DNA of 64,000 nucleotides from a virus. Under the pieces are notes generated by a model that saw nothing but the letters and a program-made list of their open reading frames with translations, ran no database searches and was not told where the DNA came from. The stretch is from positions 43,310 to 107,309 of the IMG/VR virus record IMGVR_UViG_3300047558_000238; one strand, written 5' to 3'. Each line of letters begins with the position of its first letter. The first letter of the stretch is position 1. Position numbers and translations under genes: made by a program. This document shows, one piece after another, positions 10,615 to 46,022 of this stretch.

Positions 10615-10951
10615 TGTCTATAAACTTTCCGTCTATATATCTAGATCCTATTTTAGCAGTAGCTGTAGTATCATCAACTAGAACAAATGTTGGCTGTGCC
10701 AAAAATATATCTGCTAGAGAGTCCTGGGCTCTTAGGATATCATAAACTTCACCATCTAGAACCATTGCAATGGTATGTACCGATGGTCCGCTTAGGTTCT
10801 TCTTCTGTTCCAGTGAGTACTGACTCTCTGTGCCGCTGCCATGGCTGTGTTGATGTTCCTTCGAAAAAGTATTTTTTAGCTTCTGCAGGAATGATACTTG
10901 ACTGGCTAATCCAGCCTGCTTTGGGGTAGGTATCTTATGTCTTGGCTTCAT
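10598..10951 (-). CDS. Hypothetical protein, paralog of 11645-11878
   Basis: Shared A..[LI][DN]..VY...R....LA.[IV]F..QPTF[VI].VD core; TAATG coupling at 10951. Confidence 0.65.
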   Translation of the reverse strand: MKPRHKIPTPKQAGLASQVSFLQKLKNTFSKEHQHSHGSGTESQYSLEQKKNLSGPSVHTIAMVLDGEVYDILRAQDSLADIFLAQPTFVLVDDTTATAKIGSRYIDGKFIDNEPTT

Positions 10952-11640
10952 TAGTCGTACTTTTTTCTGTGCCACATGGTGCGCTTATAGTTAAAGTCTT
11001 TTGTTCGTGCTAGATAAGCAAAGTAGCCTAAGTTTCTAAGGGCCTTGCTGCTAGCTGAGCGTATCTGCATTTTCCAGTCGTAGCGCTTGATAGGGATCAA
11101 CTGGGCTATAGGAGTTCCTTTAGGGATAACCCCTTCAAAATCTTCTTTTATGAAAAACGGAATGTTGCCAGCGTTAAAAAATACATCTGAATCGATGATA
11201 CCAGAGGTCACGTGGAAAGGTAGATCTTCTCTATTTAGTGGATGGGTCAGTAACACACTGAATCCACGGGGAGCCTTAAAATTCCAGAAACCTGTAAATG
11301 CGAGATGGTTTGGCGCGAATCCTGGCAGTCTAGGCATTGTCTCGCCTAGTGCTGCTGGACGTTCGTTAATTATTTGACCAAGAGGGTTTTCCGGGTATGA
11401 AAAAAATATGTTTCCATCTTTTTTAGAGACTTCAATATCAAAAGGAATAGTTAACACATATCCGGTAATCATCGCATCTAAAAAAGGCATACACTGTTTA
11501 AGTCCAGCTGATTTTTCACCTGTAGCGGTTAAAAAATGGCTTTCTGCAGACTTATACCACCCGGGTAGCGCTCTTTTAGTAGGTACTGGTCTTCCGTATT
11601 CAACTAAGTCTTTAGCGATAAAAAACTTTAGAAGTTTCAT
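10951..11640 (-). CDS. DUF6065-like protein with dUTPase-fold-like motifs
   Basis: K.C.PFLDA..GY, GIIDSD, IPKGTPIAQLIP; paralog of 22530-23261. Start moved to ATG 11640. Confidence 0.65.
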   Translation of the reverse strand: MKLLKFFIAKDLVEYGRPVPTKRALPGWYKSAESHFLTATGEKSAGLKQCMPFLDAMITGYVLTIPFDIEVSKKDGNIFFSYPENPLGQIINERPAALGETMPRLPGFAPNHLAFTGFWNFKAPRGFSVLLTHPLNREDLPFHVTSGIIDSDVFFNAGNIPFFIKEDFEGVIPKGTPIAQLIPIKRYDWKMQIRSASSKALRNLGYFAYLARTKDFNYKRTMWHRKKYD

Positions 11641-11644
11641 AAAC

Positions 11645-11878
11645 CTATGGCTTGCTGAAAGTTCCAGTAACTGGGTCGTAAATGTCGCCAGCCTCCACTG
11701 GGTCGTTAACATCTACCTGAATAAATGTTGGCTGGCCACTAAAGACCGAAGCAAGTTGAGCATCTGTTCGCATTCTTTGGTAGACAACATTATTGATAAT
11801 TAGTGCAAAACCATATTCGTTTGCGCTCTGCTGAGGCTGGCCTGGCGATTCTAGAGGCGGAATGCTTGGTAAAGTCAT
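11645..11878 (-). CDS. Hypothetical protein, paralog of 10598-10951
   Basis: Directly follows the Cys-rich gene; QPTF motif. Confidence 0.65.
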   Translation of the reverse strand: MTLPSIPPLESPGQPQQSANEYGFALIINNVVYQRMRTDAQLASVFSGQPTFIQVDVNDPVEAGDIYDPVTGTFSKP

Positions 11879-11879
11879 T

Positions 11880-14982: not shown

Positions 14983-17900
14983 CTACGCGAACTTAGCTTG
15001 GCTAGCTAGAACAGTAAATGTGTTAGTAGCTGTCTTAATAATAGTGTAGGTGTACATGTCAATAGAGCTAGCGTTTCCGCTAGAAGGAGCAGTTCCACCT
15101 ACCCATTTAGGGGTCACAGCCGTTCCATCGATTTGGTACGACGTTGGGTAGTATGGGGTAGTTCCGTTTGTAATCAGTAGTGCGCATGTCACTGACTGAT
15201 TTACTGACATAAATGCATCCAGGCTTGTGGCACCATCGTAATAGAAGTTAACTATTCCGTTGCCAGCTGCCGCTACAGTGTAGAACTGAACTGCACCATC
15301 TACTAACTTAAATGCACCTCCAGCAAATCCAGTAGCTGTTGCATATACGCCTTCCTTGGTTTGTGAAGTCAGCACTGGGCTAATGAGTGTCTTATTAGAT
15401 AGCGTCTGCGTTCCAGGAATTGTTACATATGTAGATGTGTCTGGAGCAGGGCCAGTTGCACCAGTAGGTCCAATTGGACCTTGAATACCTTGAACACCCT
15501 GAGGGCCTGCAGGGCCAGTGTCTCCAGTTGCACCAGTTAAACCCTGAACACCTTGAGCACCAGTTGCTCCAGTTGCTCCAGTTGGGCCGGTCGGGCCCAT
15601 ATCTCCGGCAACAGCTTCTGCCCAGAAGCCGTCGATATATGTGAGTAGAGTTCCAGTCGCGGTGTCGACCCATACGTCTCCTACGGAAGGCGATGTCGGG
15701 GCTACGTCTGAAACATAGAATTTACCGTCTGCACCTGTAGGACCAGTTGGTCCATCTAGTCCGTCGATACCGGCCGCGCCAGTAGGCCCAGTAGGGCCAG
15801 TTGCTCCTTGAACTCCAGTTGCACCAGTTGGACCTGTCGGACCAGTTGGGCCAATAGCACCAGCACTAATGGTTGTCCTAACGTTTGATGCCTTACCGTC
15901 TTCAAAATAGATGGTGGTAGTGCTATTAGAGTTTCCATATCCAGTAGGTCGGATTGCATAGTACTTAAAGACAAGTCTGTCAGTCAAATCAATTGATGCT
16001 GCAACTGATCGTACATACTGATAAGAAATCTCTTCAATGGTAGTGTTGCTGTGCAGTTCAGAGTCTACAGTTGAAAGTAGAGTCTCGCTCCCTCCGCTAG
16101 GTCCGCACTTATAGACTTCAGTGCGGAACTTAACACTGCCAGAGTCTACAAGCATGTGTAGGGAGTTGACTCCGATTCCTGTTGGAATATTAGTCACACC
16201 AGGAACTCCGACTGGAGTGGCAAATGCTCCAATTAGGTATGGAGTATCTGCCAGAGATAGCTGAATAGTGTAGCTAGTAAGCGCATTTACTGAAGGGCTT
16301 TCACCTGCAATAAAGTATCCAGTTAGGTCAGAGGTATCAGTTCTATTTAGATAGAAAGTTCTACCAGCTGCACCACCCTGAGGTCCTGTCGGTCCAGTGG
16401 CACCAGTCGGTCCGGTCGGGCCAACTACCTGAGAGTTAGTCCAGACGCCAGTAGCCGAGTTATATCTAAGAACGTCACCATCAACTAGAGTGCTTAGATT
16501 TACATCGTGAAGCTCGTCTAGCTCTAGACCATTGGCTACCTTTACATAGATAGACCCGGTTGTGGCTGATTTACGGACTAGGACACCAACCATAACCCCA
16601 TGAGCTGGAGCTTCTGGCCGCTGAGTAGTCATGGTTCCAGCAGTTTCTGATAGCCAAAGGACTGCACCTTCGCTATAGTTACTAACTATTCCACCGAATC
16701 CAACATAGTTAGATGTATCTATGTCTCTAACTAGACCATTAAGGGTCACATATCCTTCACCAGCCACTGCAATATCTTCTGTAGCGATACCAACAGTAGC
16801 TGTAGACTGCAACTCGGTAGAGGCGTCTGCCAAAATAACTTCTGGTCTAGTGCCATTTGCGCCACTAAGAGCGACAACTGACCCATTGGTGATAGTTGAC
16901 CCGGTAGCGTTGTAGACCTTCATCACGAACTCTTGGCCAACCTGGAGGGTTACGTTGTTACCGCCAAGACGAAGGTTTAGCGTACCATCAGCCTCGTTCC
17001 AGGCTAGCTCGCCTGGATTCGAGACACCGTTAACATACGTGGTGTCAAATCCCAGCTTGTCTAGTCCAGAGATTGAAGTTATTTCGGTAACAGCTCCGGA
17101 TGGCATAGGCCCTGTTGCACCAGTTGCACCAGTTGGTCCAGTTGGTCCAGCAACAGTCGAAGCTGCACCAGTCGGTCCAGTCGCACCAGTCGGACCAGTT
17201 GGTCCAGTCGCACCATCAGCGCCAATGTATCCATCTGCACCCTGAGGACCAGTCGCTCCGGTTGGGCCAGTCGGACCTTCTACACCTTGAGCACCAGTTG
17301 GGCCAGTTGGGCCTACCGGTCCAACAGAACCAGTAGGACCAGTCGGACCATCTACACCCTGAATTCCAGGGACACCTTGAATACCAGCAATACCCTGAGC
17401 ACCGGTAGGGCCTGTTGCTCCGGTAGGACCAGCCAAAGTGCCTGAGTCGACCCAGGATAGTGTTGTCTCTGACCAGATATATAGAACACCACCAGCGATG
17501 CTTGCATCGCCTGGAGTTCCAGTAGGGTGCGCTGCAATGAGCTCTGCATAAGTGTTATGAGCGTCAATGATCTGAATACCTTGACCCTGCGCACCAGTTG
17601 GGCCTGTCGGACCCTGAGCTCCAGTTGCACCTGTCGGTCCAATATTCCCCTGAACACCCTGAGCACCAGTAGCACCCGTTGGTCCAGTAACCCCTTGGGT
17701 TCCAGTTAGGCCTTGAGGCCCCTGAGCTCCCGTCGCACCAGTTGGACCGGCAATACCTTGAATACCTTGAGGACCTGTTGCACCAGTTGGGCCCTGGACA
17801 CCTTGAGCGCCAGTTGCACCAGTTGGTCCAGTGACCATCGATGGGGCACCAGTCGGACCGGTTGGACCCTGAGCTCCTGTTGCACCAGTTGGACCAGTTA

Positions 17901-19314
17901 CACCCTGAATTCCTTGGAATCCAGCCACGCCCTGAGGCCCCTGAGGGCCAGTAGGTCCAGTTGGTCCCTGTAAGTTTCCATTAGCTTCCCAGGCTAGGTT
18001 GTCCTGAGACCAGATGTAGATTGTACCGTTTACAACGTGCACGTCTCCGACGTTACCAATTGGGTGATCAGTGACAAGCTCTTGGTACGTAGCATAGGAG
18101 TCTAGAATAGTTAGGCTTTGACCCATTGGCCCTGTTGCACCAGTTGGTCCAGTTATACCTTGTACACCTGCGGCACCAGTTGCACCTGTAGGGCCTGTAG
18201 GGCCTTGAATACCCTGTAAACCAGTAAGACCCTGAGCTCCCTGGGCACCAGTTGCACCAGTTGCACCAGTTGCACCAGTAGCTCCAGTTGCACCGGTTGG
18301 TCCAGCTGGACCCTGCGTACCTTGAGCACCAGTTGGGCCAGTAACACCTGCTGGTCCTTGAAGACCGCTTGCTCCAGTAGGGCCAGTTGGCCCTACGGAA
18401 CCAGTTGCACCAGTGGCACCAGTTGCACCCTGAGTTCCAGTAAGACCCTGAGGGCCAGTTGCACCGGTAGCTCCAGTAGCACCTGTTGGCCCCTGGATAC
18501 CCTGTGTACCAGTAGGGCCTGTTGCTCCGATGGGACCCGTTGCTCCAGTAGGGCCTTGAATGCCCTGTGCACCCTGAGCTCCAGTCGGTCCGGTTGCTCC
18601 AGTAAGACCTGCTGAACCAGTAGCACCTGTTGCACCAGTTGGTCCAGTAGCTCCAGCAGACCCTGCAATACCCTGAGGACCAGTAGCTCCAGTCGGACCA
18701 GTCGACCCGGTTAGTCCTTGAATACCTTGAGGACCAGTTGCACCTGTTGCTCCTGTTGCACCAGTTGGACCAGTTACACCCTGAATTCCTTGCTCGCCCT
18801 GAGGACCAGTAGCACCAGTTGCACCCTGAGTTCCAGTAAGACCCTGAGGGCCTGTAGCACCAGTAGGACCCTGAGGGCCAGTAGAACCAGTAGCTCCGGT
18901 TGGCCCTGCTTGCCCTTGAATACCTTGAATACCCTGCGCACCAGTAGGACCAGTTGCCCCTTGAGCTCCTGTTGCGCCAGTAGCTCCAGTAGCGCCCGTT
19001 GCACCAGTTGCACCAGCTGCACCAGTTGCACCTGGTGTTCCTTGAATACCAGTTAGACCCTGTGGTCCAGTTGGGCCCTGGATACCTTGAGGACCAGTTG
19101 CGCCAGTAGGGCCTGGAATAGTACTAGCTGCACCAGTAGCACCAGTTGCACCAGTTGCACCAGTTGCACCAGTTGCACCAGTAGGACCAGTAGATCCTGG
19201 AGCGCCTGTAGGGCCAGTTGGCCCTCCCGCAGGGCCAGCAGGGCCAGTAGGTCCAGCAGGGCCTTGAGCCCCTACGCCCTTAACTTCTAGATACGCAAAG
19301 TCATCTGAAAACAT
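14983..19314 (-). CDS. Large collagen-like fibre protein (1443 aa)
   Basis: Long [12 protein letters not shown] triplet runs interrupted by globular domains, two of them duplicated (I.D...TY.EL...HP.G..GD...YIWS). Confidence 0.9.
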
Positions 19315-19673
19315 TAGTAAGTAATCTCCGCTCTAACGGTAAACTTTCCAGCAATAAATTTAGTAACGTCTCCGTCAGGGCTTTCAAGTTCTATATCATA
19401 TGTGTAGATGCCAGCTGCTAGTGCCTCAGTTTGAGCTGGAGTAAGTAGAACTTCAACTTTTCCGGTGAGCGGCTCTATCACTAGACTTCTAGTTCCAGTA
19501 ACTAGTGAGAGCGCAATCTCGGAGCTATTGGCTGAAGTTCTTATCTGCATTCGACCGGAGTACCCAGTCAAGTTGATAGGAGTCTTAGTAGATGTCTTAA
19601 GAATTAAGACGCGATTCAGTGTAGCACCTTGATCGGCTATTATATCATAGTAATTGTTCGTTGCGCAATACAC
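19314..19673 (-). CDS. Ig-like virion/baseplate-type protein, paralog of 33119-33478
   Basis: Y.I.ADQG.T..R, GY..RM..R, YD.EL, G.F.VRAE[IV]T. Confidence 0.7.
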
Positions 19674-19729: not shown

Positions 19730-20329
19730 CTAGTTGCTTAGCCTTTTAATCCAGAAAGCTGGCGACATGTATTTAACTCCTGAGACTACCGGAGTCGACC
19801 TGTGATAGTAGGGCTCTACAGATGGGAAGACCACAATACTTCCAGCTTCTGGCTTTATTTTTATATCGAACTCAGTGAAATGTAGCTCGCCGCCGTCCAT
19901 ATCGTCATTTAGGTAGATAACAGCTGACATTATTGGCTCTAAATGCGGCTCCCCGTGGTAGTCAACGTGAGGGCCCATCTCTGCTCCGCTAATGTATTTA
20001 GAGATACTTATAGGCGCTGGGTCGATATAGTCTATGCCATTCTTTTTGGCATAATCTCTTCCCGCCTCGGTTAAAGCGGTTTTTAGATTTAGATATATTG
20101 ACTTGACGCTATCAGAGCTGGTGCTTAGTTTAGATTCATCAGTAAATTTTTGCTGACCAAATACGTAAGGCTCTCCATCGCCAGAAGCCAACCATTGATG
20201 CCATTTTTGTATAGCATCGTTGGTAGTCAGATTAGCATCTGTTGTCTCGATGAGCTCTATGATCTTTTCTGGGCTCTCTACAATACCCTTGTAGTAGTAA
20301 ATTTTGTCAGCAAAAATCTCGGGGTTCAT
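19730..20329 (-). CDS. 2OG-Fe(II) oxygenase, prolyl-4-hydroxylase-like
   Basis: HVD, YLNDD.DGGEL.F, H.STPV.SG.KY. Confidence 0.9.
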   Translation of the reverse strand: MNPEIFADKIYYYKGIVESPEKIIELIETTDANLTTNDAIQKWHQWLASGDGEPYVFGQQKFTDESKLSTSSDSVKSIYLNLKTALTEAGRDYAKKNGIDYIDPAPISISKYISGAEMGPHVDYHGEPHLEPIMSAVIYLNDDMDGGELHFTEFDIKIKPEAGSIVVFPSVEPYYHRSTPVVSGVKYMSPAFWIKRLSN

Positions 20330-21063
20330 TAGGCGAACTTGTTGCCCTTCTCCCACTCTATTTTCTGCTCGGCCTGTGCCTTACGTACCTCTTGGATTTC
20401 GGCTTCCCAAGCTGCCTTTTTCTCATCAGAGTACACGGCATCGGCAAAGTCCCAGAAGGAGACCATGGTATATCTAGTTCCCTTTAGAATCTCTTTAACT
20501 CCGTGAATGTTTTCTATTCCGCCAGGGAAGCAGATGTACGAGTAGGCAGCTGGCTTAAACTCTAGGTTGTGGTCAGGAAAATAAAGCTCTCCACCCTCGT
20601 AATCGTCATTTAAGTACAAGATACCTACATACTTATTAATCTCAAAAGCGTTTGGCGAGCCGTCGAAGTCCGAGTTATCTGAGTGTGGCGCTGCAAATCC
20701 GCCAACATCCCACTTCTGCGCATGCGAAGTATTGGCTACAACTTCACGATCAAATACCAGCTGAATAGCTTCTTTAAACTTTTCACGAAGAGTCTCGAAG
20801 AAGCGTGGAGGCAAGTCGTAGTCAGCTAGCTTCGGGTCATCAGGGTGAATGCCCATACCGGATGATCCGTAGAAGGCAATATCACCCCACGAAGAAGAAT
20901 ATGACTCTATGTAGTTGATGATGTTTCTTGCGGTATCTGGAGAGACAAAGTTAGCAATCTCTACGATACGGTTCTGAGGGATACCTAGCTCCCCGATGGC
21001 GTTGGGCTCATCTTTATAGACGATGAACTCTTCTGGCTGTAGGTTTTCAATAATCAATGACAT
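20329..21063 (-). CDS. 2OG-Fe(II) oxygenase, prolyl-4-hydroxylase-like
   Basis: HSD, YLNDDYEGGELYF, HGV....G.RY. Confidence 0.9.
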   Translation of the reverse strand: MSLIIENLQPEEFIVYKDEPNAIGELGIPQNRIVEIANFVSPDTARNIINYIESYSSSWGDIAFYGSSGMGIHPDDPKLADYDLPPRFFETLREKFKEAIQLVFDREVVANTSHAQKWDVGGFAAPHSDNSDFDGSPNAFEINKYVGILYLNDDYEGGELYFPDHNLEFKPAAYSYICFPGGIENIHGVKEILKGTRYTMVSFWDFADAVYSDEKKAAWEAEIQEVRKAQAEQKIEWEKGNKFA

Positions 21064-21833
21064 TAGTGGTCTATACCTTTCAAGTTATATCGTCCAGAAT
21101 TACGTTCGACGCGCTCGCGCTCTTTTTCCATCTCGCCCCATACCGTGGGGCCGTACTTTTCCAAACCGTCACGCCACTCCTGAGTGCCCTCCGAGTAGTA
21201 CTGCCAGAATGAGCGAACAAAATATTTTTGCCCTGAAGTAGTTTTATTTACTCCATGGTAGTAAGGTGCTCTGGACGGGAACACTAGCACATCACCGGCC
21301 TGAGGCTTATGAATAAAAAAATCTACATCAGTACCTTCTTCATTCAATACTTTGAAGCAGATCTCTCCGCCTTCATAGTTATCGTTTAGGTACATAGTGC
21401 ATGTCATCACTGGCTTATCGCCAGGAGCATCAGCGCGTTCTTGCTGAAAATCAGTGTGATAGAACATGCCAACATTAGTGTCTGCTCCGCCATCAGTTTT
21501 ATACATGCAAATAGCGGGAGCGCTGAATTTCCAGTTAGGAATCTCTTCGTTGAAGTAGTTATCGTGGTAGTGACTGGTGGCCGTATAAAAAGCTCCCATA
21601 ATTTCTTGTGCAGCAGGTACTAGACCCTGGCTCGCAACCATGGTCTCATGCCACTCATCAGCATCAGGAAATTTACTAAATGTATGGTTTCTAGCCTTTA
21701 CGGTAGTTAGCTCTCCAAAGGTAAACCACTTAGCCCACTCCGCCGAGTCACGGTAATGCTTAGCTACTTCTTCTGGGTTTTGATATAAACCTCGGTAGAC
21801 AACAACATTCGGGTAGAGTTCGATAACTTCCAC
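21063..21833 (-). CDS. 2OG-Fe(II) oxygenase, prolyl-4-hydroxylase-like
   Basis: HTD, YLNDNYEGGEI.F, HGV....G.KY. Start set at the coupled GTG 21833. Confidence 0.9.
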   Translation of the reverse strand: MEVIELYPNVVVYRGLYQNPEEVAKHYRDSAEWAKWFTFGELTTVKARNHTFSKFPDADEWHETMVASQGLVPAAQEIMGAFYTATSHYHDNYFNEEIPNWKFSAPAICMYKTDGGADTNVGMFYHTDFQQERADAPGDKPVMTCTMYLNDNYEGGEICFKVLNEEGTDVDFFIHKPQAGDVLVFPSRAPYYHGVNKTTSGQKYFVRSFWQYYSEGTQEWRDGLEKYGPTVWGEMEKERERVERNSGRYNLKGIDH

Positions 21834-22513
21834 TAGATACCGCACTGGCTTTCGTGAGATAAGATCGTCCAGAAAAACGGAACAGTGTATCTAGTACCGG
21901 AGGTAATCTGAGTTACTCCGTGAATGTACTCCATGTCTCCAGGGAAGAAGTAAGCAGCACCTGCCTTGGGCTTAAACTGAATCCCCTGATTTGGGAAGTA
22001 CAGCTCGCCACCTTCGTAATCGTCGTTCAAGTAGAACAGTCCAGCTAGGTCATAGTAGGGGAAGTCATTTGGCTTACCTCTATCTGCACCTTGGTGTAGC
22101 TCTTTATCTGCGTGAGGCATCTGAAGCTGTCCAGGCAGCCAGCGGACTAAAGCTGGTGAAGTAGGTACCGCGTCTACTTTAAAGAACGCGTCTACTTCCT
22201 TCTTAAGCCGATCAACCATACCGCTGATCACTTCTGGAATCTTTGGATCTACTGCTCGTATGGTGTCATAGGTGGCAACTCGATCTTTCCAGTAGTCAGA
22301 GTCGTAAATTACCGTGCCTTCTTCGTTATAGTGAGTCTCGGTTACATCCCAGGCAGTATTTGATCGAATAAATTTATTAAGAGTCTCTAGCTCGTACTCT
22401 GTCATAAAGTTCTCACGGGTCTGAATGTTTGACGGGCTATTGCCAAAAAATCCAGATGGTGTTATAGAGACTCTATTATTTAGTCTAGAGTTTGCGTAAT
22501 CTTCTGGTTCCAT
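21833..22513 (-). CDS. 2OG-Fe(II) oxygenase, prolyl-4-hydroxylase-like
   Basis: HAD, YLNDDYEGGELYF, HGV....GTRY. Confidence 0.9.
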   Translation of the reverse strand: MEPEDYANSRLNNRVSITPSGFFGNSPSNIQTRENFMTEYELETLNKFIRSNTAWDVTETHYNEEGTVIYDSDYWKDRVATYDTIRAVDPKIPEVISGMVDRLKKEVDAFFKVDAVPTSPALVRWLPGQLQMPHADKELHQGADRGKPNDFPYYDLAGLFYLNDDYEGGELYFPNQGIQFKPKAGAAYFFPGDMEYIHGVTQITSGTRYTVPFFWTILSHESQCGI

Positions 22514-22529
22514 ATTTTTATCTTACTGT

Positions 22530-23261
22530 CTACTCGTAAACTCGTCTGGTCCAAACTTCTTTTTGGTAGACGCCACCGTCAGGTACACGATATTTTTTAC
22601 TATTTTCATTGTTACTCATCGCCATCTTCATGTACGAGACATCAGCATCTACTTCTGACTCCCAGTCTTCTCGCTTAAATGGAAGCATCTGGGCATACGG
22701 TGTTCCGGCTGGAATAATTCCGGTAAAGCCTTTTACTACAAAGAATGGCATGGTTCCCGGAAGGTTTACCTTGTCATTGTCGATAATTCCACTAGTGGTT
22801 AGAAACGGTAGCTCAAAGCGATTGAATGGCTGGGTGTATAGGACGCTGTAGCCTTCAGGGACTGATACGGCCCAGTCTGACCACCATGCGAAGTGGAACT
22901 CGTGGTAGCCCATCGGTGCTTTAAACTGAGGCATTGGTGGTCGGTTCTGGATAAAGTCCTTGTTTTGAGGGTCTAGGACCTTAGCTCTAATGGTTCCGTT
23001 TTCTTCATAAAACTCGATATCGCATGGTGTTCTATAGACGTATCCAGTACCCATGATGTCAAAAACTGCCGGACAAGCTTTCCAGGTAGGGATCTTTCCT
23101 CCCACCATCGGGTCCTGCCAGTATTCACCATCTGGCTTTATTGCAAACCTATCAGCTTTTCTATACCACTCTGGGATAGTCTTAATAGTTGGACGCGGGA
23201 CAGAGGGGCTATCCTCTGTCAGCCATGGCCTGTTCTTGATGAACTTAATCAGTTGTTTCAA
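22530..23261 (-). CDS. DUF6065-like protein with dUTPase-fold-like motifs
   Basis: K.CP...D...GY, GIIDND, IPAGTPYAQM.P. Confidence 0.65.
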   Translation of the reverse strand: MKQLIKFIKNRPWLTEDSPSVPRPTIKTIPEWYRKADRFAIKPDGEYWQDPMVGGKIPTWKACPAVFDIMGTGYVYRTPCDIEFYEENGTIRAKVLDPQNKDFIQNRPPMPQFKAPMGYHEFHFAWWSDWAVSVPEGYSVLYTQPFNRFELPFLTTSGIIDNDKVNLPGTMPFFVVKGFTGIIPAGTPYAQMLPFKREDWESEVDADVSYMKMAMSNNENSKKYRVPDGGVYQKEVWTRRVYE

Positions 23262-23979
23262 TTGTCATTCCTGTCACTGGGCATGTTACTGTCTTTAGTC
23301 TTATTGACTTAGTCTCGTGAGAGCCTAACGAAGTACCATCATAGTTTATGGCGTTTCTATACATCTTCGACCAGTCACCCTTAGAGTTTTTGGCTTGTGC
23401 CGCATCTCCATACTTTCTCAGCTCCTCCCAGTACTCGGGTGGTGGTGGGGTGCTGTCTACTTCTAAAGTGAAGTTGTCTTCTAGCTGACCCAATGAGATT
23501 GGCAGAACTGCTGCTACTGGAGTTCCTGCTGGAATAGTAATCTCTTTGTCTGCTTCGGTTATCTTCCAAGCAACTGGTAGCGGTGCATTATAGAAAGACG
23601 TGCTAATTAGCGTAGTAAAGCATTGAGTACCAGCTATAAACTGATTCGGAACTGGCATAGTTAGCGTTGTAACATCAGCGTCTGTATGGAAGATTAGTCC
23701 AGTATCGAAACTAACTGTTGCACTGCCTCGATTTGGGTTCGCCCACTCTTCACCTTTGAGAATAGTGACATGGTCTCTGGTCGGATCATCGATTCCATCC
23801 CAGATAAATGAAATATCTTCAGGGAAAGATATACCCCACCCTAGCCGATTAGTTAGCGACACTGGAAAGCACATGTAGCCATGCTTTTCTGGCAGTCGAT
23901 CCATCCAGTCTCTGGTCCCTGGTAATGGTTCGATTTTTACACCGTTATCGTAGGCCTTAACTACACGTATAGTTTTCAC
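23245..23979 (-). CDS. DUF6065 family protein
   Basis: RDWMD...GY.CFP...N..GW.I..P.D....WDG. Confidence 0.75.
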   Translation of the reverse strand: MKTIRVVKAYDNGVKIEPLPGTRDWMDRLPEKHGYMCFPVSLTNRLGWGISFPEDISFIWDGIDDPTRDHVTILKGEEWANPNRGSATVSFDTGLIFHTDADVTTLTMPVPNQFIAGTQCFTTLISTSFYNAPLPVAWKITEADKEITIPAGTPVAAVLPISLGQLEDNFTLEVDSTPPPPEYWEELRKYGDAAQAKNSKGDWSKMYRNAINYDGTSLGSHETKSIRLKTVTCPVTGMTIETTD

Positions 23980-24728
23980 TAGCTTCCGGTTTCTACCATA
24001 AATGACGGCTTGTGGAACTTGTCTGAGTAGTCAAGCATAGTTACCATCGAGTACTTAGTACCAGACTTAACTGGCATAGCTCGGTGTGGGTACATAAAGT
24101 TTGACGGGAAGATATATAAATCGCCTGCAGTAGCCTTGATGGTTGCATTTTGCAGTCTGAAGTGCAGCTCGCCGCCTTCATAGTCATCATTAGGGAACGC
24201 AACTAGGGACACTACGCAGTTGTAGGAGAAGCCGTGATCGTGGTGCTCCTGAAAGTGCTGTCCTGGACCGTACTTAATGAAGTTAGTTGCTTCCCAGTAG
24301 CGGAGCTCGCCAATGTTATACATCTTTGTGTAGTGGCGGACTGCCTGAAGCTGGCGATAGTGAGTCTCGTCCCAGAGGGCAGCAAGCTTTTCAGCTGCCT
24401 CCGACTTATCGCTTTGAATGTCTGTCTTCTTGTACTTAAAATCAAAGCAGTCGCGATACTCTGGCATCTTTACGCCATATCCGACCAATGCTTCTTCGTA
24501 GTGGTATCGATTAGTCGGGTCTAATAGGACCTCTTCTAGTCTGCTAATGACGTTTACTGAAGACGGTATTACATTTCTATACACCCAGATACCAGATCCT
24601 GGCGCAACCTCTTCTGCGTGGTCCCAGGTTTTTTCTTCAATCTCGTACCACTTAGTTAGGCGTAGATTGTGGTCTTCAATCTCTCGCTCCATTGCTTCAG
24701 TTGGCTTACTTACGTGAGAGTTTTGCAT
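23979..24728 (-). CDS. 2OG-Fe(II) oxygenase, prolyl-4-hydroxylase-like
   Basis: HHD, NDDYEGGEL.F, FPSNFMYPH...V.SGTKY. Confidence 0.9.
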   Translation of the reverse strand: MQNSHVSKPTEAMEREIEDHNLRLTKWYEIEEKTWDHAEEVAPGSGIWVYRNVIPSSVNVISRLEEVLLDPTNRYHYEEALVGYGVKMPEYRDCFDFKYKKTDIQSDKSEAAEKLAALWDETHYRQLQAVRHYTKMYNIGELRYWEATNFIKYGPGQHFQEHHDHGFSYNCVVSLVAFPNDDYEGGELHFRLQNATIKATAGDLYIFPSNFMYPHRAMPVKSGTKYSMVTMLDYSDKFHKPSFMVETGS

Positions 24729-24737
24729 TATTACCTC

Positions 24738-25481
24738 TTAGTACTTGAGCTTGTAGTCTTGAATTATTGGAGACACCTTGTGATTAACATCTCCGCGATC
24801 GTTGTAGTCGGTCATAATAACAACCGCATACTTAGTCCCGCTAATCATGTCCTGAGATGCGTGCTCATAGATATATGTTGACGGGAATACGACAATATCT
24901 CCTGCCTTAGGCTTAATCGAGAGTCCGTCCATACGGGGGAACCAGATCTCACCACCTTCGTAGTCGTCATTTAAGTAGACGACCACGGAGATGGTGCAAA
25001 CATACGTCGGGCCATGGTCAGCGTGGACCTTAAAGTGGGTGCCAGCACCCTCGTACTTTACAAAATTGAATGCCTCATACGATGCAATGCCAACACCCCA
25101 ATAGCGACCGTAGTCGTCTACGCATTGGCGCACTGCCTGAAACACTGCCTCGTGAACGTCGTACAGTTCGGCGTTGTCTTCGTTACGTGGCCCCAGTCCA
25201 GTGGAGTTGATCTTAAAGTCTTGAGCATTCCTTGCATTAAGGTCGACATCTGCAGATGATGTGACCTTAGCTCCATGCCATTTATATCTACCGCTGCCGT
25301 CAAGCTTACGCTCTAACGTATCGATGTATTGCTGCCCCTGCTCTTTGGTGATTGCACCACTATAAACATTGATGCCTAGAGCTGGGTTAGTTACGGTAAT
25401 AGCTGGATTAGTTGAAGCCTGGCGACCAGGCATACGGTGAGATGCGGTCTCTGACCTGTCTTTAGTAAACCAATCGTTCAT
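24738..25481 (-). CDS. 2OG-Fe(II) oxygenase, prolyl-4-hydroxylase-like
   Basis: HAD, YLNDDYEGGEI.F, EH.....SGTKY; TATAGT shortly upstream of ATG 25481. Confidence 0.9.
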   Translation of the reverse strand: MNDWFTKDRSETASHRMPGRQASTNPAITVTNPALGINVYSGAITKEQGQQYIDTLERKLDGSGRYKWHGAKVTSSADVDLNARNAQDFKINSTGLGPRNEDNAELYDVHEAVFQAVRQCVDDYGRYWGVGIASYEAFNFVKYEGAGTHFKVHADHGPTYVCTISVVVYLNDDYEGGEIWFPRMDGLSIKPKAGDIVVFPSTYIYEHASQDMISGTKYAVVIMTDYNDRGDVNHKVSPIIQDYKLKY

Positions 25482-25499
25482 ATGGTCTACTATACACAA

Positions 25500-26102
25500 C
25501 TATTCAGATTTTTGCTGAAGTCTTTCTAGGTATTTTGGGCTCATTAAATATGACTCTGACTCTGTTAATAGCCCCTGGTCTTGTAGCTTATATCCGTAGT
25601 CTGGACCTTCGGTGAAATACCAATGATCTTCCGGACAAAAATGAAACATAATAACCTCGACCCTGTTGTTATCTGGGTCAGGCATTTCATTGCGCCAATG
25701 AGAATCATAGCCCCCCATAAATGCTAAAGCTTGTCCCTCGGAGAATATAAACTCCTCGCCCTCGACTACTACCCCCCATGGAGTTCTGGCTGATAGGCAG
25801 TAGTCGATTGTATAGGTGCATGCGTTATTGTCCCTATGCGGGGGTAAGCTAGAGGTCGGCTTATTGTAGTCTAGATAGACAGCATAGGTTGACTTAAGAT
25901 TAGGATCAGAAAATATCTCTCTAGCTGTTGGCTCGATAGCCTTACTAAAGTAGTCATCTAGCTGAGTAAATCTTTTAACTCCTCTATCTTTTTTGGAGTC
26001 TTTCCATGACTTCTTAAAGTCGTCAGAGTCTATTAAAGCTCGAAGCTTTTCATGATCTGCTGCAGAGAAAAGATTATCTAGTAGTTTAGGTTCAAAGTGC
26101 AT
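25500..26102 (-). CDS. Divergent 2OG-Fe(II) oxygenase-like protein
   Basis: HRD..CTY, F.G....HWR. Confidence 0.7.
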   Translation of the reverse strand: MHFEPKLLDNLFSAADHEKLRALIDSDDFKKSWKDSKKDRGVKRFTQLDDYFSKAIEPTAREIFSDPNLKSTYAVYLDYNKPTSSLPPHRDNNACTYTIDYCLSARTPWGVVVEGEEFIFSEGQALAFMGGYDSHWRNEMPDPDNNRVEVIMFHFCPEDHWYFTEGPDYGYKLQDQGLLTESESYLMSPKYLERLQQKSE

Positions 26103-26114
26103 TAGAAGCCGCCT

Positions 26115-26918
26115 CTACTTAAGTCTGACGTAGCCAGGAATATGGTCTGTAAAATCCTCTGCAACAATGTTGCACTGACCACATCCGCCAGGATTGCATT
26201 CATAGTTTGACTCGGGTATTCCGGTCAGTCTTGGGCTGTGGCCTATATGTTCGTAGTATCTAATATCGCCATCTAATTTATACTCAGCCATTCGACGATA
26301 TAGCTCTTCATGATCTTTGTCGTCGTAAGCACTTAGGTCGTACATCCAATGCTCTGGGCTAACAAATAAGACGAACATCAATACTACGTAAGCATCTTCA
26401 TCAACGTCTGGGTATGGCGGCCTTGCATGGGTCTGCTGTTGCCCCATAAAAAATACACCGCTGTTTACGGCTTCCTCAAATCGCTCGCCATCGACTAGTA
26501 GGCCCCAGCTATCTATGCCGTGAGTGTCTATGCATATGTCCATAGTGAACTGAGTTCCTGGCTGATCCATGTGCTCCCAGAGATATGGAGTTATGCCTTT
26601 ATATTTTTGATATCTAGCAAACCAGATATTTTTGATTCGAAGTCCCTGCTTTTTCCAATTTTTCTTGGCTAAGTCGTCTAGGTGGTCCCAGACCTCCTGC
26701 GGCAAATCAATCTCGGTCACCCATCTGCCAGTCATGGTGTGGTATTGCGCTGGATTCTCTAGACTCTCGCTGCCTGGCCCCCAGTTGGCTTTTTCAGCCA
26801 GTGCCAAGTTTATCTCCTCGAGCATATCCTCTGGGAATATGCCCTCTACTTTTTTAGCTGGCTCACCTTCTGGCAGGGGCCACTTTATGTTTGGGCTGGA
26901 GTCAGCTGAAATCGGCAC
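26115..26918 (-). CDS. Divergent 2OG-Fe(II) oxygenase-like protein with C-terminal Cys cluster
   Basis: HMD, FMGQQQTHAR, C-terminal CNPGGCGQC; related to 25500-26102. Confidence 0.65.
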   Translation of the reverse strand: MPISADSSPNIKWPLPEGEPAKKVEGIFPEDMLEEINLALAEKANWGPGSESLENPAQYHTMTGRWVTEIDLPQEVWDHLDDLAKKNWKKQGLRIKNIWFARYQKYKGITPYLWEHMDQPGTQFTMDICIDTHGIDSWGLLVDGERFEEAVNSGVFFMGQQQTHARPPYPDVDEDAYVVLMFVLFVSPEHWMYDLSAYDDKDHEELYRRMAEYKLDGDIRYYEHIGHSPRLTGIPESNYECNPGGCGQCNIVAEDFTDHIPGYVRLK

Positions 26919-26938
26919 AATCTCTCCTAAAAACTAAA

Positions 26939-26965
26939 ACGGGGGTGGCATGTAACCACCCCCGT
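26939..26965 (-). terminator. Intrinsic terminator/attenuator after the FN3-(P/F)n gene
   Basis: ACGGGGGTGG-N7-CCACCCCCGT stem followed by a T-rich tract on the minus strand. Confidence 0.75.
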
Positions 26966-26980
26966 ATCAGTCTACGCTAG

Positions 26981-27844
26981 CTACTCTTCTTTCTGAGGCT
27001 CTTCGTTCTCTGCATCTAGCTCTCGCTCATCGATCGAGCTCATGCCGAATCTTGGCGGGAAGAACGGGAAGAACGGGAAGAACGGTGGGAAGAACGGGAA
27101 GAACGGTGGGAAGAACGGGAAGAACGGGAAGAACGGTGGGAAGAACGGGAAGAACGGTGGGAAGAACGGGAAGAACGGTGGGAAGAACGGGAAGTACGGG
27201 AAGTACGGGAAGTATGGCGGGAAGAACGGAGGCGTAGTATTCTGAGTAGAATACGCTGACCACAGCGATGTTCCATTAATATTTACTGCTCTAACTCGGT
27301 ACTGCTGTGAAGTAGCAGCTTCCTGAGCTACGTTGGCTGCCGTACTTACGGTGTTGCCAGACTTAGCATCAGTACTCTCCCAGTAGTAGAGAGTTATGTT
27401 GCTGCCACCGTTATTTGGGGCGGTCCAAGAGACATAGTCTGTTTGGTCATTAGAGAAGTTTTGAACTACTGGAGCAGCAGGGGCATCCGGGACAGTTGTA
27501 ATCGTTACCGCAGCAGACTCGGTAGAGAAAGCAGAAGCACCACTTGCATTTGAGGCAGATACTGTAAAAGTATATGACCCGTTGGAGTCTAGACCGCCTA
27601 CGGTTATCGGTGATGCTGTTCCAGTTGTCCCGGTTGCAGTAGTATCTTCTATGCCAGATTTGTATGCTTTTACAGTATATGAAGTTGCTGGTGGCGACCC
27701 GGCTGGTAGGGTAAACGATACAGACGCAGCGCCGTCGTTGTATGCTCTGTCGGTTGCAACGTTAGTTGCAGACACATTTGTAGGAACAGAAGGCTGTAAA
27801 AAATCATTCTGTTGCTGAGAGTGTCTACCTGCTCTTTTTGACAT
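26981..27844 (-). CDS. Two FN3 domains plus 62-aa Pro/Phe/Tyr repeat and acidic tail
   Basis: PSVPTNVSA...YTFTVSASN.SG and W.AP..GGS.IT.Y...YRVRAVN.NG.S.WS FN3 patterns, then P(P)FF units. Confidence 0.85.
   Translation of the reverse strand: MSKRAGRHSQQQNDFLQPSVPTNVSATNVATDRAYNDGAASVSFTLPAGSPPATSYTVKAYKSGIEDTTATGTTGTASPITVGGLDSNGSYTFTVSASNASGASAFSTESAAVTITTVPDAPAAPVVQNFSNDQTDYVSWTAPNNGGSNITLYYWESTDAKSGNTVSTAANVAQEAATSQQYRVRAVNINGTSLWSAYSTQNTTPPFFPPYFPYFPYFPFFPPFFPFFPPFFPFFPPFFPFFPFFPPFFPFFPPFFPFFPFFPPRFGMSSIDERELDAENEEPQKEE
27047..27232 (-). repeat. Coding minisatellite of CCGTTCTTC / CCACCGTTCTTC units (18 P(P)xF units)
   Basis: Read directly; nearly invariant codons. Confidence 0.95.
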
Positions 27845-27862: not shown

Positions 27863-30484
27863 CTAGGCGGACAGGTCTCCATAGACTAACCAAGTATTTG
27901 CTGCACGCTTTAATAGTGTAGCAGATGACCACTGAGTTCTTAGCTTAAGCCCTGGAGTTGCATTTACTGTTACTCCTCCAGCTCCAGCAATAGTTACCTG
28001 TCCAGCTCCAGTCTGGATGATATCTAACGTGGTACCTACGGGGTAGTTTATGGTTGCATCTGTTGGAATTGTTAGAGTTGTAGCCGATGCGCTTCCAATC
28101 TCAACGATAGTGTCTCGCTCATCTAGGCTTGCTAGCGTGTATGATGCGGTCTTCTGAGAGATCGTCGTAATAGATGGCACTCCGACCTTTGTCTGAGTCC
28201 CGTCTGAGAACGCTACTCCACTAGAAGATACTGTAACTAGTCCAGTAAACGTAGGAGCTGCTATCGGCGCGTACGTACTTGCAGCGGTAGAGGTTCCAAG
28301 CTTGGCGTCTAGCTGGCTCTGAATCCCTGATGTTACTCCATCTAGGTACTGTAGTTCTGTATTAGATACGTTTCCGATTACTGCAGACGACGCCTCGAAT
28401 GCTCCGACGGCAAGTGCATCTAGCGATCCCTGAGTGAAGTTGATAGTAGTAGTAGGCTCGTCGGTTACACCTTTAAATAGCTTCCATTTAGCGTCCGATG
28501 AGTCTCTAACAAGTCCGGCATGCTGGTAAGTTCCGTCATTAAAGCTAGCAACCATACCAAGGTCTGATGAGTTAGCATTATTGCCTTCACCAATATAGAT
28601 TAGCGGGTCAGTAATGGCTAAGTCAGTTGCATTTACTGTCGTAGTAGTTCCGTTGACGGTGAAGTCTCCTGAAATTACTAGGTTACCGCCAATGTATGCG
28701 CTATCTCCTGTGCCTAGTCCACCAGCAATTACCAAAGCTCCGGTAGTTGTGCTAGTAGATGGTGTCGTAGCTGAGATAGCAACATTTCCTGTGAAGGTGT
28801 CTCCAGAGAGATCTGCTTTTCCATCTAGCTGAGTCTGGATAGCTGAAGTAACGCCATCTAGATAGCCAACCTCGGTAGCACTTACGGTGCCGATAGATGT
28901 TGTAGAAGGTAGCGTAACTGTTCCAGTGAAAGTTGGTCCAGCTAGGTCAGCCTTTAGGTCTAAAGCGCTCTGAGTTGCAGTTGATATTGGCTTACTAGCG
29001 TCAGAAGTATTGTCTACATCTCCTAAACCAACCATGGCCTTAGTTATGCCAGAAACTATCCCGGTAAAGGTTGGGTTGGCGATTGGTGCCTTAGAGTCTA
29101 TCTGAGATTGAATAGCTGAAGTAACGCCAGAGAGCTGGTTGATTTCTGAGGCTAGAACGGTCACACCATCTAGGGTGTTTAGCTCTGCAGTGCTTACAGT
29201 TGCTCCAGTAAGAATGTTAAGTTCTGCGGTGCTAGCTGTAATTCCAGTAAGAACATTAATCTGGGCGCTAGTTGCTGTCACTCCTGTAAGGATATTTAGC
29301 TCTGCAGTACTTGATGTCATACCGTGCAGAATGTTCAACTCTGTGGTAGTTGCCGTAATTCCAGTTAGCGTATTTATCTCTGCCGTAGTGGCTGTAACTC
29401 CATCAAGAAGGTTTAGCTCTGCGGTGCTAGCAGTAATCCCGGTAAGAGTATTTAGCTGTGCAGTAGTTGCTGTGATTCCAGTCAGAACATTCAGCTCTGC
29501 AGTGCTTGAAGTGATACCATCCAGGATCGCTAACTCCACTGGAGAGATAGTGCCGATAGTAGTATCAGCCGGAAGTACTACAGTACCTGTGAAAGTTGGG
29601 CTAGTCAGGTATGCAAGATTTCCAGTGTCCGAGATTCCGTGAACATTCGAGATTTGGCTGTTGTGCACAGTGATTGCATTAGATACGTCGACTTGATACG
29701 CCAAGTTGGCTGCATTAGAGATTCCGTGCACATCTGTTGTGCGGTTGTGAACTATGATTTCATCGTCCACGTAGCCCTTAGTGGCCGCATGCAGAGGGTT
29801 TACGGGGGCACTAGGGAGTGTTAGTGCTCCAGTCATGGTGTCACCAGACTTTGACACCTTAGTACCGATTGAGTTCGTTATCGTAGTAGCAAAATTAGCA
29901 TCATCATTTATTGCAGCAGATAGCTCATTGAGTGTGTCAAGCAGAGCTGGTGAGCCATCGATAACTGCACTAACTGCAGTATCTACATACCCCTTAGTTG
30001 CTGCATCAGTCGAACTTGCTGGTGCTGCTAACCCTGTAACTGTGTAGTTATTAGCGTCTAGGTTGGAGCCTAAAGAGGTGAAAGGTCCGATAACCTTATT
30101 TCTAATAGTCTGATAGTCAGTTGTACCGACCACATCACCAGCAACGCCGTGAACATCGTGAGTTGCCGATGCGTGAGTGCTTAGGTTAGTTGCTACGGTT
30201 GTGAAAAATGCTGGATCATCGCCAAGAGCCGCTGCTAGCTCATTTAGGGTATCCAATGTCGATGGAGCTAGATCAATGATGCCATTGACAGCAGTGTCAA
30301 TCATCCCCTGAACTGTTGCTGGAGATGCTGTAGCGTAGGCCAAAGCACTCCAAGTACTAGTGCCATCACCAAACTTAATGCTCAGTGTATCGGTCTCTAG
30401 CCCAACCTCGCCGCTGGAGAGTACTGGATTAAACGATGACCAGTTAGCTGCTGTGTCGTGTCTGAGGATGATTTTAACTGCCAT
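27863..30484 (-). CDS. Fibre protein with Mtd/hyaluronidase-type N-terminal domain, 13-aa repeats and C-terminal adaptor domain
   Basis: LRHDTAANW...NPVL..GE.GLETDT...KFGDG; DAATKGYVD motifs; about 11 TAELN.L.G.T repeats. Confidence 0.85.
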   Translation of the reverse strand: MAVKIILRHDTAANWSSFNPVLSSGEVGLETDTLSIKFGDGTSTWSALAYATASPATVQGMIDTAVNGIIDLAPSTLDTLNELAAALGDDPAFFTTVATNLSTHASATHDVHGVAGDVVGTTDYQTIRNKVIGPFTSLGSNLDANNYTVTGLAAPASSTDAATKGYVDTAVSAVIDGSPALLDTLNELSAAINDDANFATTITNSIGTKVSKSGDTMTGALTLPSAPVNPLHAATKGYVDDEIIVHNRTTDVHGISNAANLAYQVDVSNAITVHNSQISNVHGISDTGNLAYLTSPTFTGTVVLPADTTIGTISPVELAILDGITSSTAELNVLTGITATTAQLNTLTGITASTAELNLLDGVTATTAEINTLTGITATTTELNILHGMTSSTAELNILTGVTATSAQINVLTGITASTAELNILTGATVSTAELNTLDGVTVLASEINQLSGVTSAIQSQIDSKAPIANPTFTGIVSGITKAMVGLGDVDNTSDASKPISTATQSALDLKADLAGPTFTGTVTLPSTTSIGTVSATEVGYLDGVTSAIQTQLDGKADLSGDTFTGNVAISATTPSTSTTTGALVIAGGLGTGDSAYIGGNLVISGDFTVNGTTTTVNATDLAITDPLIYIGEGNNANSSDLGMVASFNDGTYQHAGLVRDSSDAKWKLFKGVTDEPTTTINFTQGSLDALAVGAFEASSAVIGNVSNTELQYLDGVTSGIQSQLDAKLGTSTAASTYAPIAAPTFTGLVTVSSSGVAFSDGTQTKVGVPSITTISQKTASYTLASLDERDTIVEIGSASATTLTIPTDATINYPVGTTLDIIQTGAGQVTIAGAGGVTVNATPGLKLRTQWSSATLLKRAANTWLVYGDLSA

Positions 30485-43725: not shown

Positions 43726-43751
43726 CTATTTTATTGGAGTATACTCTAGAC

Positions 43752-46003: not shown

Positions 46004-46022
46004 GACAAGGAAAAAAAAGAAT

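Follow-up and report, generated by a model that had tools for sequence, protein, structure and literature searches.

A fiber-linked module of putative prolyl hydroxylases and a proline-phenylalanine tract, its candidate substrate, in an uncultured freshwater phage lineage

Results

Gene content of the locus

The sequence examined here, referred to as the window, is a stretch of 64,000 nucleotides (positions 43,310 to 107,309 of IMG/VR virus record IMGVR_UViG_3300047558_000238) from a 107-kb parent record with a completeness estimate of 63%. It contains a minus-strand locus in which a gene for a two-FN3-domain protein with a proline-phenylalanine tract is followed by ten genes, E1, E2, E3, E4, D1, D2, E5, E6, E7, and E8, encoding eight predicted 2-oxoglutarate (2OG)-Fe(II) oxygenases and two DUF6065-like proteins (Table 1). 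The locus represents a late-gene module that is conserved in a lineage of uncultured freshwater (lake) phages, and the tract is the best candidate substrate that we can name for its enzymes.

The first fn3 domain of the tract protein (residues 35 to 110) scores 35.1 bits against a Pfam cut-off of 25, while the second (residues 113 to 205) is sub-threshold (E value of 0.0032, 18.1 bits) but covers nearly the full profile (positions 2 to 82 of 84). The 62-residue tract that follows (residues 205 to 266) consists of 32 Phe, 26 Pro, 3 Tyr, and 1 Arg, and is succeeded by an acidic tail of 21 residues that forms the C-terminus. It is encoded by a minisatellite of 9/12-nucleotide (nt) units with periods of 9, 21, and 51, the 51-nt units being 100% identical. 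The hairpin downstream of the gene has an 11-pair stem (8 G-C), a 5-nt loop, and a T-run, and is the top-scoring terminator-like site within 19.5 kb. The ten enzyme-block genes are separated by intergenic gaps of -28 to +16 nt, with 12 nt and no gene between E1 and E2. In its layout, as in the placement of the block between two sets of fiber genes and upstream of a collagen-like fiber, the locus is as an earlier, sequence-only reading had described it: a two-FN3 gene with a Pro/Phe/Tyr tail, a terminator-like hairpin, and ten packed codirectional genes comprising six prolyl-4-hydroxylase-like oxygenases, two divergent HxD...H oxygenases, and two DUF6065-like proteins.

Table 1. Features of the module and its surroundings (window positions unless a contig is named; P4H, prolyl 4-hydroxylase; aa, amino acids; ORF, open reading frame)
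Feature	Position	Strand	Basis
Fiber protein, 646 aa, first gene of upstream fiber set	30852..32792	-	Weak T7 tail-fiber N-terminal match
Small fiber-set protein, 114 aa	30487..30831	-	ORF
Fiber protein, 873 aa, Mtd_N domain	27863..30484	-	PF18454, 45 bits vs cut-off 26.3
FN3-FN3-(PFF/PPFF)n protein, 287 aa, acidic C-terminal tail, candidate substrate	26981..27844	-	fn3 profile, composition, homologues
Coding minisatellite for the 62-residue Pro/Phe/Tyr tract	27047..27232	-	Tandem repeat and sequence
Intrinsic-terminator-like hairpin between tract gene and E1	26939..26965	-	Stem and T-run
E1, divergent 2OG-Fe(II) oxygenase, 267 aa	26115..26918	-	E2 paralogue, motif, fold
E2, divergent 2OG-Fe(II) oxygenase, 200 aa	25500..26102	-	phrog_2954, HxD...HxR
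E3, P4H-like oxygenase, 253 aa	24738..25499	-	PF13640, 46.4 bits
E4, P4H-like oxygenase, 249 aa	23979..24728	-	PF13640, 48.6 bits
D1, DUF6065 protein, 244 aa	23245..23979	-	PF19541, 96.7 bits
D2, DUF6065-like protein, dUTPase fold, 243 aa	22530..23261	-	phrog_7084, model
E5, P4H-like oxygenase, 226 aa	21833..22513	-	PF13640, 35 bits
E6, P4H-like oxygenase, 260 aa	21063..21845	-	PF13640, 38.5 bits
E7, P4H-like oxygenase, 244 aa	20329..21063	-	PF13640, 31.9 bits
E8, P4H-like oxygenase, 208 aa	19730..20356	-	PF13640, 49.1 bits
Small protein, 119 aa, precedes collagen-like fiber	19314..19673	-	ORF
Collagen-like fiber, 1443 aa, alternative or additional substrate	14983..19314	-	244 G-X-Y triplets
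D3, third DUF6065-like paralogue, in a separate fiber cassette	10951..11712	-	34% identical to D2
PF11397 glycosyltransferase loci in relatives	L115:5385-6389; L107:1134-2027; L121:6032-6925; L010:7142-7807; L041:1063-1938; L196:5129-6001

Eight credible oxygenases of the prolyl-hydroxylase neighborhood

All six of E3 to E8 exceed the curated PF13640 cut-off of 27 bits (31.9 to 49.1 bits), and each has the HxD...H triad together with Lys or Arg at +10 from the second His (Lys in E4). E1 and E2, which are paralogues of each other (E value of 3e-12), gave nothing above cut-off in Pfam; E2 has a sub-cut-off match to Asp_Arg_Hydrox (E value of 0.0087) and matches phrog_2954 at 3.8e-10, and in the alignment of the two proteins H116, D118, H164, and R166 are invariant (HxD...HxR). 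A search of PDB sequences with the E1/E2 profile returned no usable match. The double-stranded beta-helix fold was examined for E1 alone: its model (predicted local distance difference test [pLDDT] of 93) matched best the chlorovirus prolyl hydroxylase 5c5t (E value of 6e-8), with PHD2 and the HIF hydroxylases, the Pseudomonas P4H bound to EF-Tu (4iw3), the Dictyostelium PHD 6t8m, and the small-molecule enzyme OkaE among the further matches. The profile of E3 orthologues retrieved the Bacillus anthracis P4H (3itq/5hv0) at 2.7e-6 as well as the lysyl hydroxylase LH3, and that of E5, the best-conserved enzyme of the set with 587 relatives in viral contigs, retrieved P3H1 (8k0e) at 6.8e-6, plus the P4Hs of B. 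anthracis and PBCV-1. Because of the catalytic motifs, the profile matches of E3 and E5, and the fold of E1, we regard E1 to E8 as credible 2OG oxygenases of the prolyl-hydroxylase neighborhood, with peptidyl-proline hydroxylation as the predicted activity. The assignment to a peptidyl-proline hydroxylase class made in the sequence-only reading is supported, the nearest solved relatives being peptidyl prolyl and lysyl hydroxylases.

Four extra PF13640 genes lie on the minus strand elsewhere in the window (42722-43366, 43734-44402, 44404-45102, and 47064-47618), in the company of a glutathione peroxidase gene (42000-42614) and a regular dUTPase gene (45927-46499).

The tract and the enzymes occur together in related phages

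Related viral contigs were sampled in three ways, with the following results: (i) the FN3-tract protein has at least 433 homologues, with residues 1 to approximately 205 as the conserved portion, and a Pro-Phe tract follows the FN3 part in all 80 loci fetched; where downstream DNA is available, the order fiber, tract gene, E3, E4, D1, D2, E5, and E7/E8 is kept, some loci having the variant order E3, D2, E4, D1, and the first enzyme after the tract gene is usually E3; (ii) among 48 loci sampled with E5 and having upstream DNA, a Pro-Phe tract ORF lies just upstream in 44, a Pro-x-Phe-Cys variant in 3, the remaining locus being truncated, and in several of these loci the protein has a different, single FN3 domain at its N-terminus with the position of the tract unchanged; and (iii) sampling with a bare DNA pattern for FFPPFFPFFPPFF found the enzyme core (E3/E4/D1/D2/E5) in nearly all loci with downstream room, the five exceptions being three larger records that hold an E5 orthologue elsewhere (one of them a complete 114-kb genome with 12 matches) and two small fragments estimated to be 26% and 8% complete. 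Co-occurrence across related genomes, which the sequence-only reading had put forward as one way to check its proposal, is therefore strongly positive from the side of the FN3 protein, of the enzyme, and of the bare DNA pattern. Each conserved paralogue is kept as its own orthologue, with 55 to 90% identity. In nearly all related loci, the 873-aa Mtd_N fiber gene immediately precedes the tract gene; homologues of the 646-aa fiber protein are also found upstream of the module, and the 114-aa protein, which belongs to no Pfam family, is kept between the two fiber genes.

Overall, tract and enzymes are paired in hundreds of fragments of related phages. Against isolated phages, the region gave no DNA-level match by megablast, and neither the FN3-tract protein nor D1 gave a match by tblastn. 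The window contains a gene for a WhiB-family regulator (3850-4341) and the genome a second one (C1:83402-83620), and the primase-helicase of the phage is nearest to those of Actinomycetia phage DSL-LC01 and Microbacterium phages; because of these two WhiB genes and the primase-helicase relatives, the host is probably an actinobacterium. Our literature search found no paper connecting actinophages with prolyl hydroxylases.

The collagen-like fiber as an alternative substrate

The sequence-only reading had named the collagen-like fiber as a possible further target, and it can be argued that the enzymes modify other structural proteins, above all collagen-like fibers, with the tract gene as a mere neighbor at the end of the fiber operon. 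The 1443-aa protein with its 244 G-X-Y triplets is encoded directly downstream of the block, a second collagen-like protein is encoded at 12689-13405, among solved proteins the B. anthracis P4H is nearest to E3, and several distinct paralogues could serve several fiber proteins. The triplets are rich in Gly-Pro-Thr, as are those of BclA, and the bacterial P4H is thought to act on BclA-type proteins. On the other hand, the tract gene lies upstream in effectively all covered loci, whereas the collagen-like gene lies downstream in 12 of the 32 related loci with at least 8 kb of downstream DNA; the linkage of tract and enzymes is thus real and tighter than that of the enzymes to the collagen-like fiber. 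Moreover, collagen P4H uses Pro at the Y position, and in the window's fiber Pro occupies X in 87 triplets and Y in 5 of the 244, with Thr at Y in 136 and Lys at Y in none. The collagen-like fiber is therefore the weaker partner, and an account without the tract is unlikely, although modification of the tract and of collagen-like fibers are not mutually exclusive.

The 119-aa protein encoded ahead of the collagen-like gene matches no Pfam family and accompanies that gene in related loci. The second, small collagen-like gene is part of a separate fiber cassette (10348-13405) that also includes D3. Next to D3, the cassette encodes a beta-rich protein (11880-12719) that carries an insert of Cys/Tyr-rich repeats. 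A zinc-ribbon-like, Cys-rich protein of 88 aa is encoded at 10348-10614; its homologues are present in 64 related loci, in several of which (e.g., L056, L058, and L061) they stand beside oxygenase genes.

Variation of the tract and of its C-terminal ends

The 169 distinct tracts found in related loci range from 24 to 182 residues (median of 64). Phe and Pro codons vary among them (TTC share of 0.5 to 1.0) and the composition is constant; since synonymous codons vary while composition is held, selection on the tract acts at the protein level. The idea that the tract is a mere artefact of recent slippage, or a product of chance, was rejected, because the tract is retained although its codons vary. 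The length of the tract is the sole difference between some near-identical contigs (tails of 162 versus 185 residues among L042, L043, and L044; 242 versus 234 residues in L014 and L015), which indicates that the copy number of the minisatellite changes between close relatives. Elsewhere, the tract links internal parts of fiber proteins (960, 973, and 1566 aa) or comes after a PASTA domain.

We took a census of tract ends in 173 distinct tract proteins with a complete 3' end. Short Cys-rich peptides follow the tract in 57 of these proteins and acidic tails like that of the window in 11, and 18 stop at the tract; at least 19 continue into a domain of about 180 aa with an initial Cys and a final His-Asn, which matches the Intein_splicing, PT-HINT, and Hint_2 models, in each case below cut-off. 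Examples of such Hint/intein-like ends are L038:9995-11359, L127:5705-7039, L153:6910-7806, and L127:14073-15044, and in one Hint-bearing relative a peptidoglycan-binding PASTA domain precedes the tract. The boundary after the tract is recurrent across relatives, often reading "...PPRF". The presence of a predicted self-cleaving domain at precisely this boundary suggests that in the Hint-bearing relatives the mature product stops where the tract does; since no residue suited to splicing follows the Hint-like domain, the expected reaction at the tract end is limited to cleavage or transfer.

These endings bear on the proposal, contained in the sequence-only reading, that the cluster makes a RiPP-like (ribosomally synthesized and post-translationally modified peptide-like) product. 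According to this explanation, the tract is a core peptide cut from its FN3 carrier and released, or else the cluster makes a small secondary metabolite; the layout of gene, hairpin, and enzymes in the window, the recurrent junction after the tract with the self-cleaving Hint domain in relatives, and the match of the E1 model to OkaE are all in its favor, and Iyer et al. (2010) tied tandem dioxygenase arrays to peptide-derived metabolites (PMC2938197). However, the supposed precursor has two folded domains and a conserved N-terminus, the tract sits inside fiber proteins of up to 1566 aa, there is no sign of cleavage at its N-terminal edge, and the cluster is without leader, recognition element, protease, cyclase, synthetase, halogenase, or exporter. 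Pfam and phrog scans of the ten genes detected no recognition, protease, or transporter domain. Nor is the precursor-hairpin-enzymes layout conserved: of 102 distinct related loci, 28 show a similar hairpin, and some have directly adjoining genes, so that the hairpin was rejected as a defining feature of the module. The features of the tract fit a stalk or linker in structural proteins rather than a released peptide, and we consider a RiPP or metabolite product very unlikely.

The DUF6065-like proteins

D1 is a DUF6065 protein (PF19541) well above the cut-off of 26.6 bits, with more than 1000 metagenome homologues. D2 has no match in Pfam, the dUTPase families included; its phrog match is phrog_7084 (8.5e-33), and the Atlas clusters nearest to it bear DUF6065. 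We refer to it as DUF6065-like, and not as a proven member, because it lacks a Pfam hit but can be aligned with D1. A Cys (C63 of D2) is invariant among the orthologues of D1, D2, and D3, with no conserved His. The D2 model (pLDDT of 89) has the dUTPase/dCTP-deaminase fold: all of its 22 best structural matches are members of that superfamily, the top one having a Z score of 9.1 and a root mean square deviation of 3.2 over 120 residues, with a Foldseek E value of 6.5e-4. A cupin or oxygenase fold for DUF6065 was considered and rejected, cupins reaching a Z score of about 3 at most and the conserved His being absent. A search of PDB sequences with the profile of the D proteins gave chance nucleoprotein matches only.

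The DUF6065-like family comprises 3,237 cluster representatives (E value of up to 0.001), and our literature search retrieved no paper naming it. Looking for longer or fused versions of D2 turned up one protein, from a short contig, with a transglycosylase domain; it may be a gene-calling artefact. In halovirus HF2 (L089) and cyanophage S-RIM4 (L284), a D2-like gene adjoins ribonucleotide reductase, with no oxygenase genes nearby; the family is therefore not always linked to oxygenases.

It could be supposed from the fold and from these two contexts that the module works on nucleotides or DNA, with the dUTPase-fold proteins binding a pyrimidine nucleotide and the oxygenases oxidizing bases, the more so as D2 has motif III/IV-like strings where it is aligned to the phage's own dUTPase. 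That alignment is, however, a weak profile comparison (E value of 0.092) restricted to motifs II to IV, D1 is without the motif III Asp, and the "SGIID"-like string kept in D2 is not found in D1. Furthermore, the oxygenases are of the P4H type and not of the TET/JBP or AlkB type (Tet_JBP scores fall far below cut-off), the phage has a regular dUTPase elsewhere, and the setting is a fiber operon. We regard nucleotide or DNA chemistry as most improbable.

A glycosyltransferase in related loci

Among the D-family representatives, a metagenome protein of 552 aa (P0258) combines an N-terminal PF11397 domain, "Glycosyltransferase (GlcNAc)" (E value of 2.4e-30), with a D2-like domain. This fusion is a singleton, and P0258 was not found when sought in viral and metagenome contigs. 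Separate PF11397 genes are present in 10 related loci (E values of 5e-21 to 1e-40; six are given in Table 1), between E1 and E2 in the closest relatives of the window and beside E2/E3-like genes elsewhere. PF11397 is the family of Gnt1, the N-acetylglucosamine (GlcNAc) transferase acting on the hydroxyproline of Skp1. A PF11397 gene favors a pathway of protein hydroxylation and glycosylation over metabolite or nucleotide chemistry, and hints that the dUTPase-fold proteins might deal with a uridine nucleotide.

Discussion

The analysis of this locus and its relatives points to fiber proteins as the substrates of the encoded hydroxylases, with the Pro-Phe tract as the best candidate substrate of a fiber-linked hydroxylase battery, an interpretation to which we give even chances. 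From the gene content, catalytic residues, folds, and linkage described above, we infer the chemical steps of the following scheme, in which the tract protein would be part of the virion: (i) the last gene of the fiber operon encodes two FN3 domains and a very hydrophobic (Pro-Phe-Phe/Pro-Pro-Phe-Phe)n tract that would form an extended, polyproline-like stalk; (ii) the eight 2OG-Fe(II) oxygenases encoded downstream would hydroxylate phage structural proteins at proline and perhaps at other residues, the tract being their main substrate, and each conserved paralogue would serve a different position or carbon; (iii) hydroxylation would stiffen and solubilize the stalk; (iv) in relatives bearing PF11397, it would also create acceptors for O-glycosylation of the kind seen in the Skp1 pathway and the plant hydroxyproline-rich glycoproteins; and (v) the dUTPase-fold proteins with their invariant Cys would be accessory factors, whose role may lie in processing a uridine nucleotide sugar or in holding the substrate.

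Several observations weigh against this interpretation, at least in its simple form. The P4Hs known so far hydroxylate Pro that has small or polar neighbors, whereas the Pro of the tract is flanked by Phe-Phe. There is a single tract gene in the available 107 kb, the hairpin is inconstant, E1 and E2 lie outside the conserved core in related loci, and the PF11397 glycosyltransferase is absent from the window and from the whole 107-kb record. The four extra PF13640 genes, at about 42.7 to 47.6 kb among metabolic genes, are distant from every fiber gene; outside the lineage, cyanophages and marine viruses carry PF13640 relatives with no accompanying tract; and the D2-like genes of HF2 and S-RIM4 have no oxygenase neighbors. 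Finally, the tract is nearly confined to one lineage, its pattern having been found in only 4 contigs, all freshwater metagenome-assembled genomes (MAGs), among 185,579 prokaryote genomes. Since the linkage comes from one phage lineage, function and descent are not fully separable, and shared ancestry may explain part of the conserved synteny. The four prokaryote matches (L280 to L283) belong to MAGs of four different phyla and are probably mis-binned phage contigs.

An array directed at host targets or host metabolism would account for the oxygenases without any structural substrate, whether through translation factors, ribosomal proteins, a drawdown of 2-oxoglutarate, or DNA repair. Sullivan et al. 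(2010) proposed roles linked to 2OG and to repair for cyanophage enzymes (PMC3037559), the EF-Tu-bound Pseudomonas P4H and the HIF hydroxylases are among the fold matches of E1, and the four further oxygenase genes do stand among metabolic genes. The ten genes are, however, codirectional and tightly packed between fiber genes in every related locus, the degree of conservation of the individual orthologues argues for distinct, specific substrates, and the glycosyltransferase of relatives points to protein hydroxylation and glycosylation; we consider an action on the host quite unlikely.

A more far-reaching version of the tract-centered interpretation can also be formulated, namely, a phage counterpart of the hydroxyproline-rich glycoprotein pathway. 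In it, different positions of a (Pro-Pro-Phe-Phe)n rod would be modified by several dedicated hydroxylases, Gnt1-like glycosylation would follow in some phages, the dUTPase-fold Cys proteins would represent a new class of enzymes responsible for a uridine-sugar step or for cross-linking, and the Hint domain of some relatives would release the tract end as a thioester for covalent ligation to a partner on the virion or the cell wall. Taken as a whole, this version is unlikely to hold.

To our knowledge, no substrate has been known for the tandem 2OG oxygenase arrays of phages since these were described in cyanophages in 2007 to 2010. The functions proposed for them are DNA repair, nitrogen signaling, and metabolite synthesis. 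By tying such an array to a peptide tract that is easily synthesized, the present results turn the open question of its substrate into one that can be tested at the bench. If the interpretation is correct, the module would offer the first example of a phage fiber component that is tailored post-translationally by several enzymes, and would provide a function for the large DUF6065 family, with a possible bearing on the binding of Gram-positive hosts by abundant lake phages.

One of the systems closest to the module is the tandem dioxygenase array gp41-gp54 of cyanophage Syn9, which includes a dUTPase-fold protein with a conserved Cys and for which Iyer, Abhiman, de Souza, and Aravind (2010) proposed metabolite synthesis, naming no substrate (PMC2938197). 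As in the window, where eight distinct dioxygenases in tandem and dUTPase-fold proteins with an invariant Cys come after fiber genes, the Syn9 array directly follows the fiber and fiber-assembly genes gp32-gp39, and its gp43 is a homologue of D2 (E value of 1e-4), an independent parallel that speaks for the main interpretation. Syn9 differs in being a T4-like phage with a cyanobacterial host, in having two tryptophan halogenases and a JmjC enzyme, and in having no Pro-Phe tract; tryptophan halogenase PF04820 gave no match in the 107-kb record, nor did JmjC among the ten genes. Upstream of the Syn9 array (L286, record 21068-43144), gp36 is 35% Gly and Cys-rich, a possible counterpart of a low-complexity tract protein.

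Among viral prolyl hydroxylases, that of chlorovirus PBCV-1 (vCPH, 5c5t) is the best fold match of E1 and is also matched by the E5 profile. As Eriksson and colleagues reportedly described in 1999, PBCV-1 encodes a P4H together with proline-rich repeats thought to be its substrates. It differs from the module in having one enzyme, a eukaryotic host, repeats of the Pro-Ala-Pro-Lys type, and no dUTPase-fold partner. The Skp1 pathway of Dictyostelium and Toxoplasma, in which PhyA acts first and Gnt1 second, offers the combination of a P4H with a GlcNAc transferase acting on the new hydroxyproline, hydroxylated Skp1 being the substrate of Gnt1 (PMC3515798). It is echoed here by the PF11397 gene between E1 and E2 in relatives of the module and by the appearance of 6t8m among the fold matches of E1. 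It differs in that a single Pro of a cytoplasmic regulator is modified, not a repeat tract, and in that the window is without a transferase.

By sequence, no solved protein is closer to E3 than the B. anthracis P4H (3itq, 5hv0), and in plants several P4H paralogues with different site preferences are reported (PMC11252719). BclA and the plant hydroxyproline-rich glycoproteins are, however, hydrophilic substrates, collagen-like or rich in Ser-Pro, while the tract is almost pure Pro and Phe. RiPP clusters likewise place a gene with an odd peptide segment before tailoring enzymes, and in the window an attenuator-like hairpin lies between the two, but the module has no short precursor, leader, recognition element, protease, or exporter, and its segment is found within folded structural proteins. 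Hint autoprocessing, as in the Hedgehog C-terminal and bacterial intein-like domains, is resembled by the Cys-...-His-Asn domain after the tract in relatives; the protein of the window has its acidic tail instead, and the relatives have no splicing-suited residue after the domain. Arrays of the Syn9 kind and viral P4Hs accompanied by Pro-rich repeats were thus already known, and what the present module adds is a candidate substrate, a link to a glycosyltransferase, and Hint-type endings of the tract.

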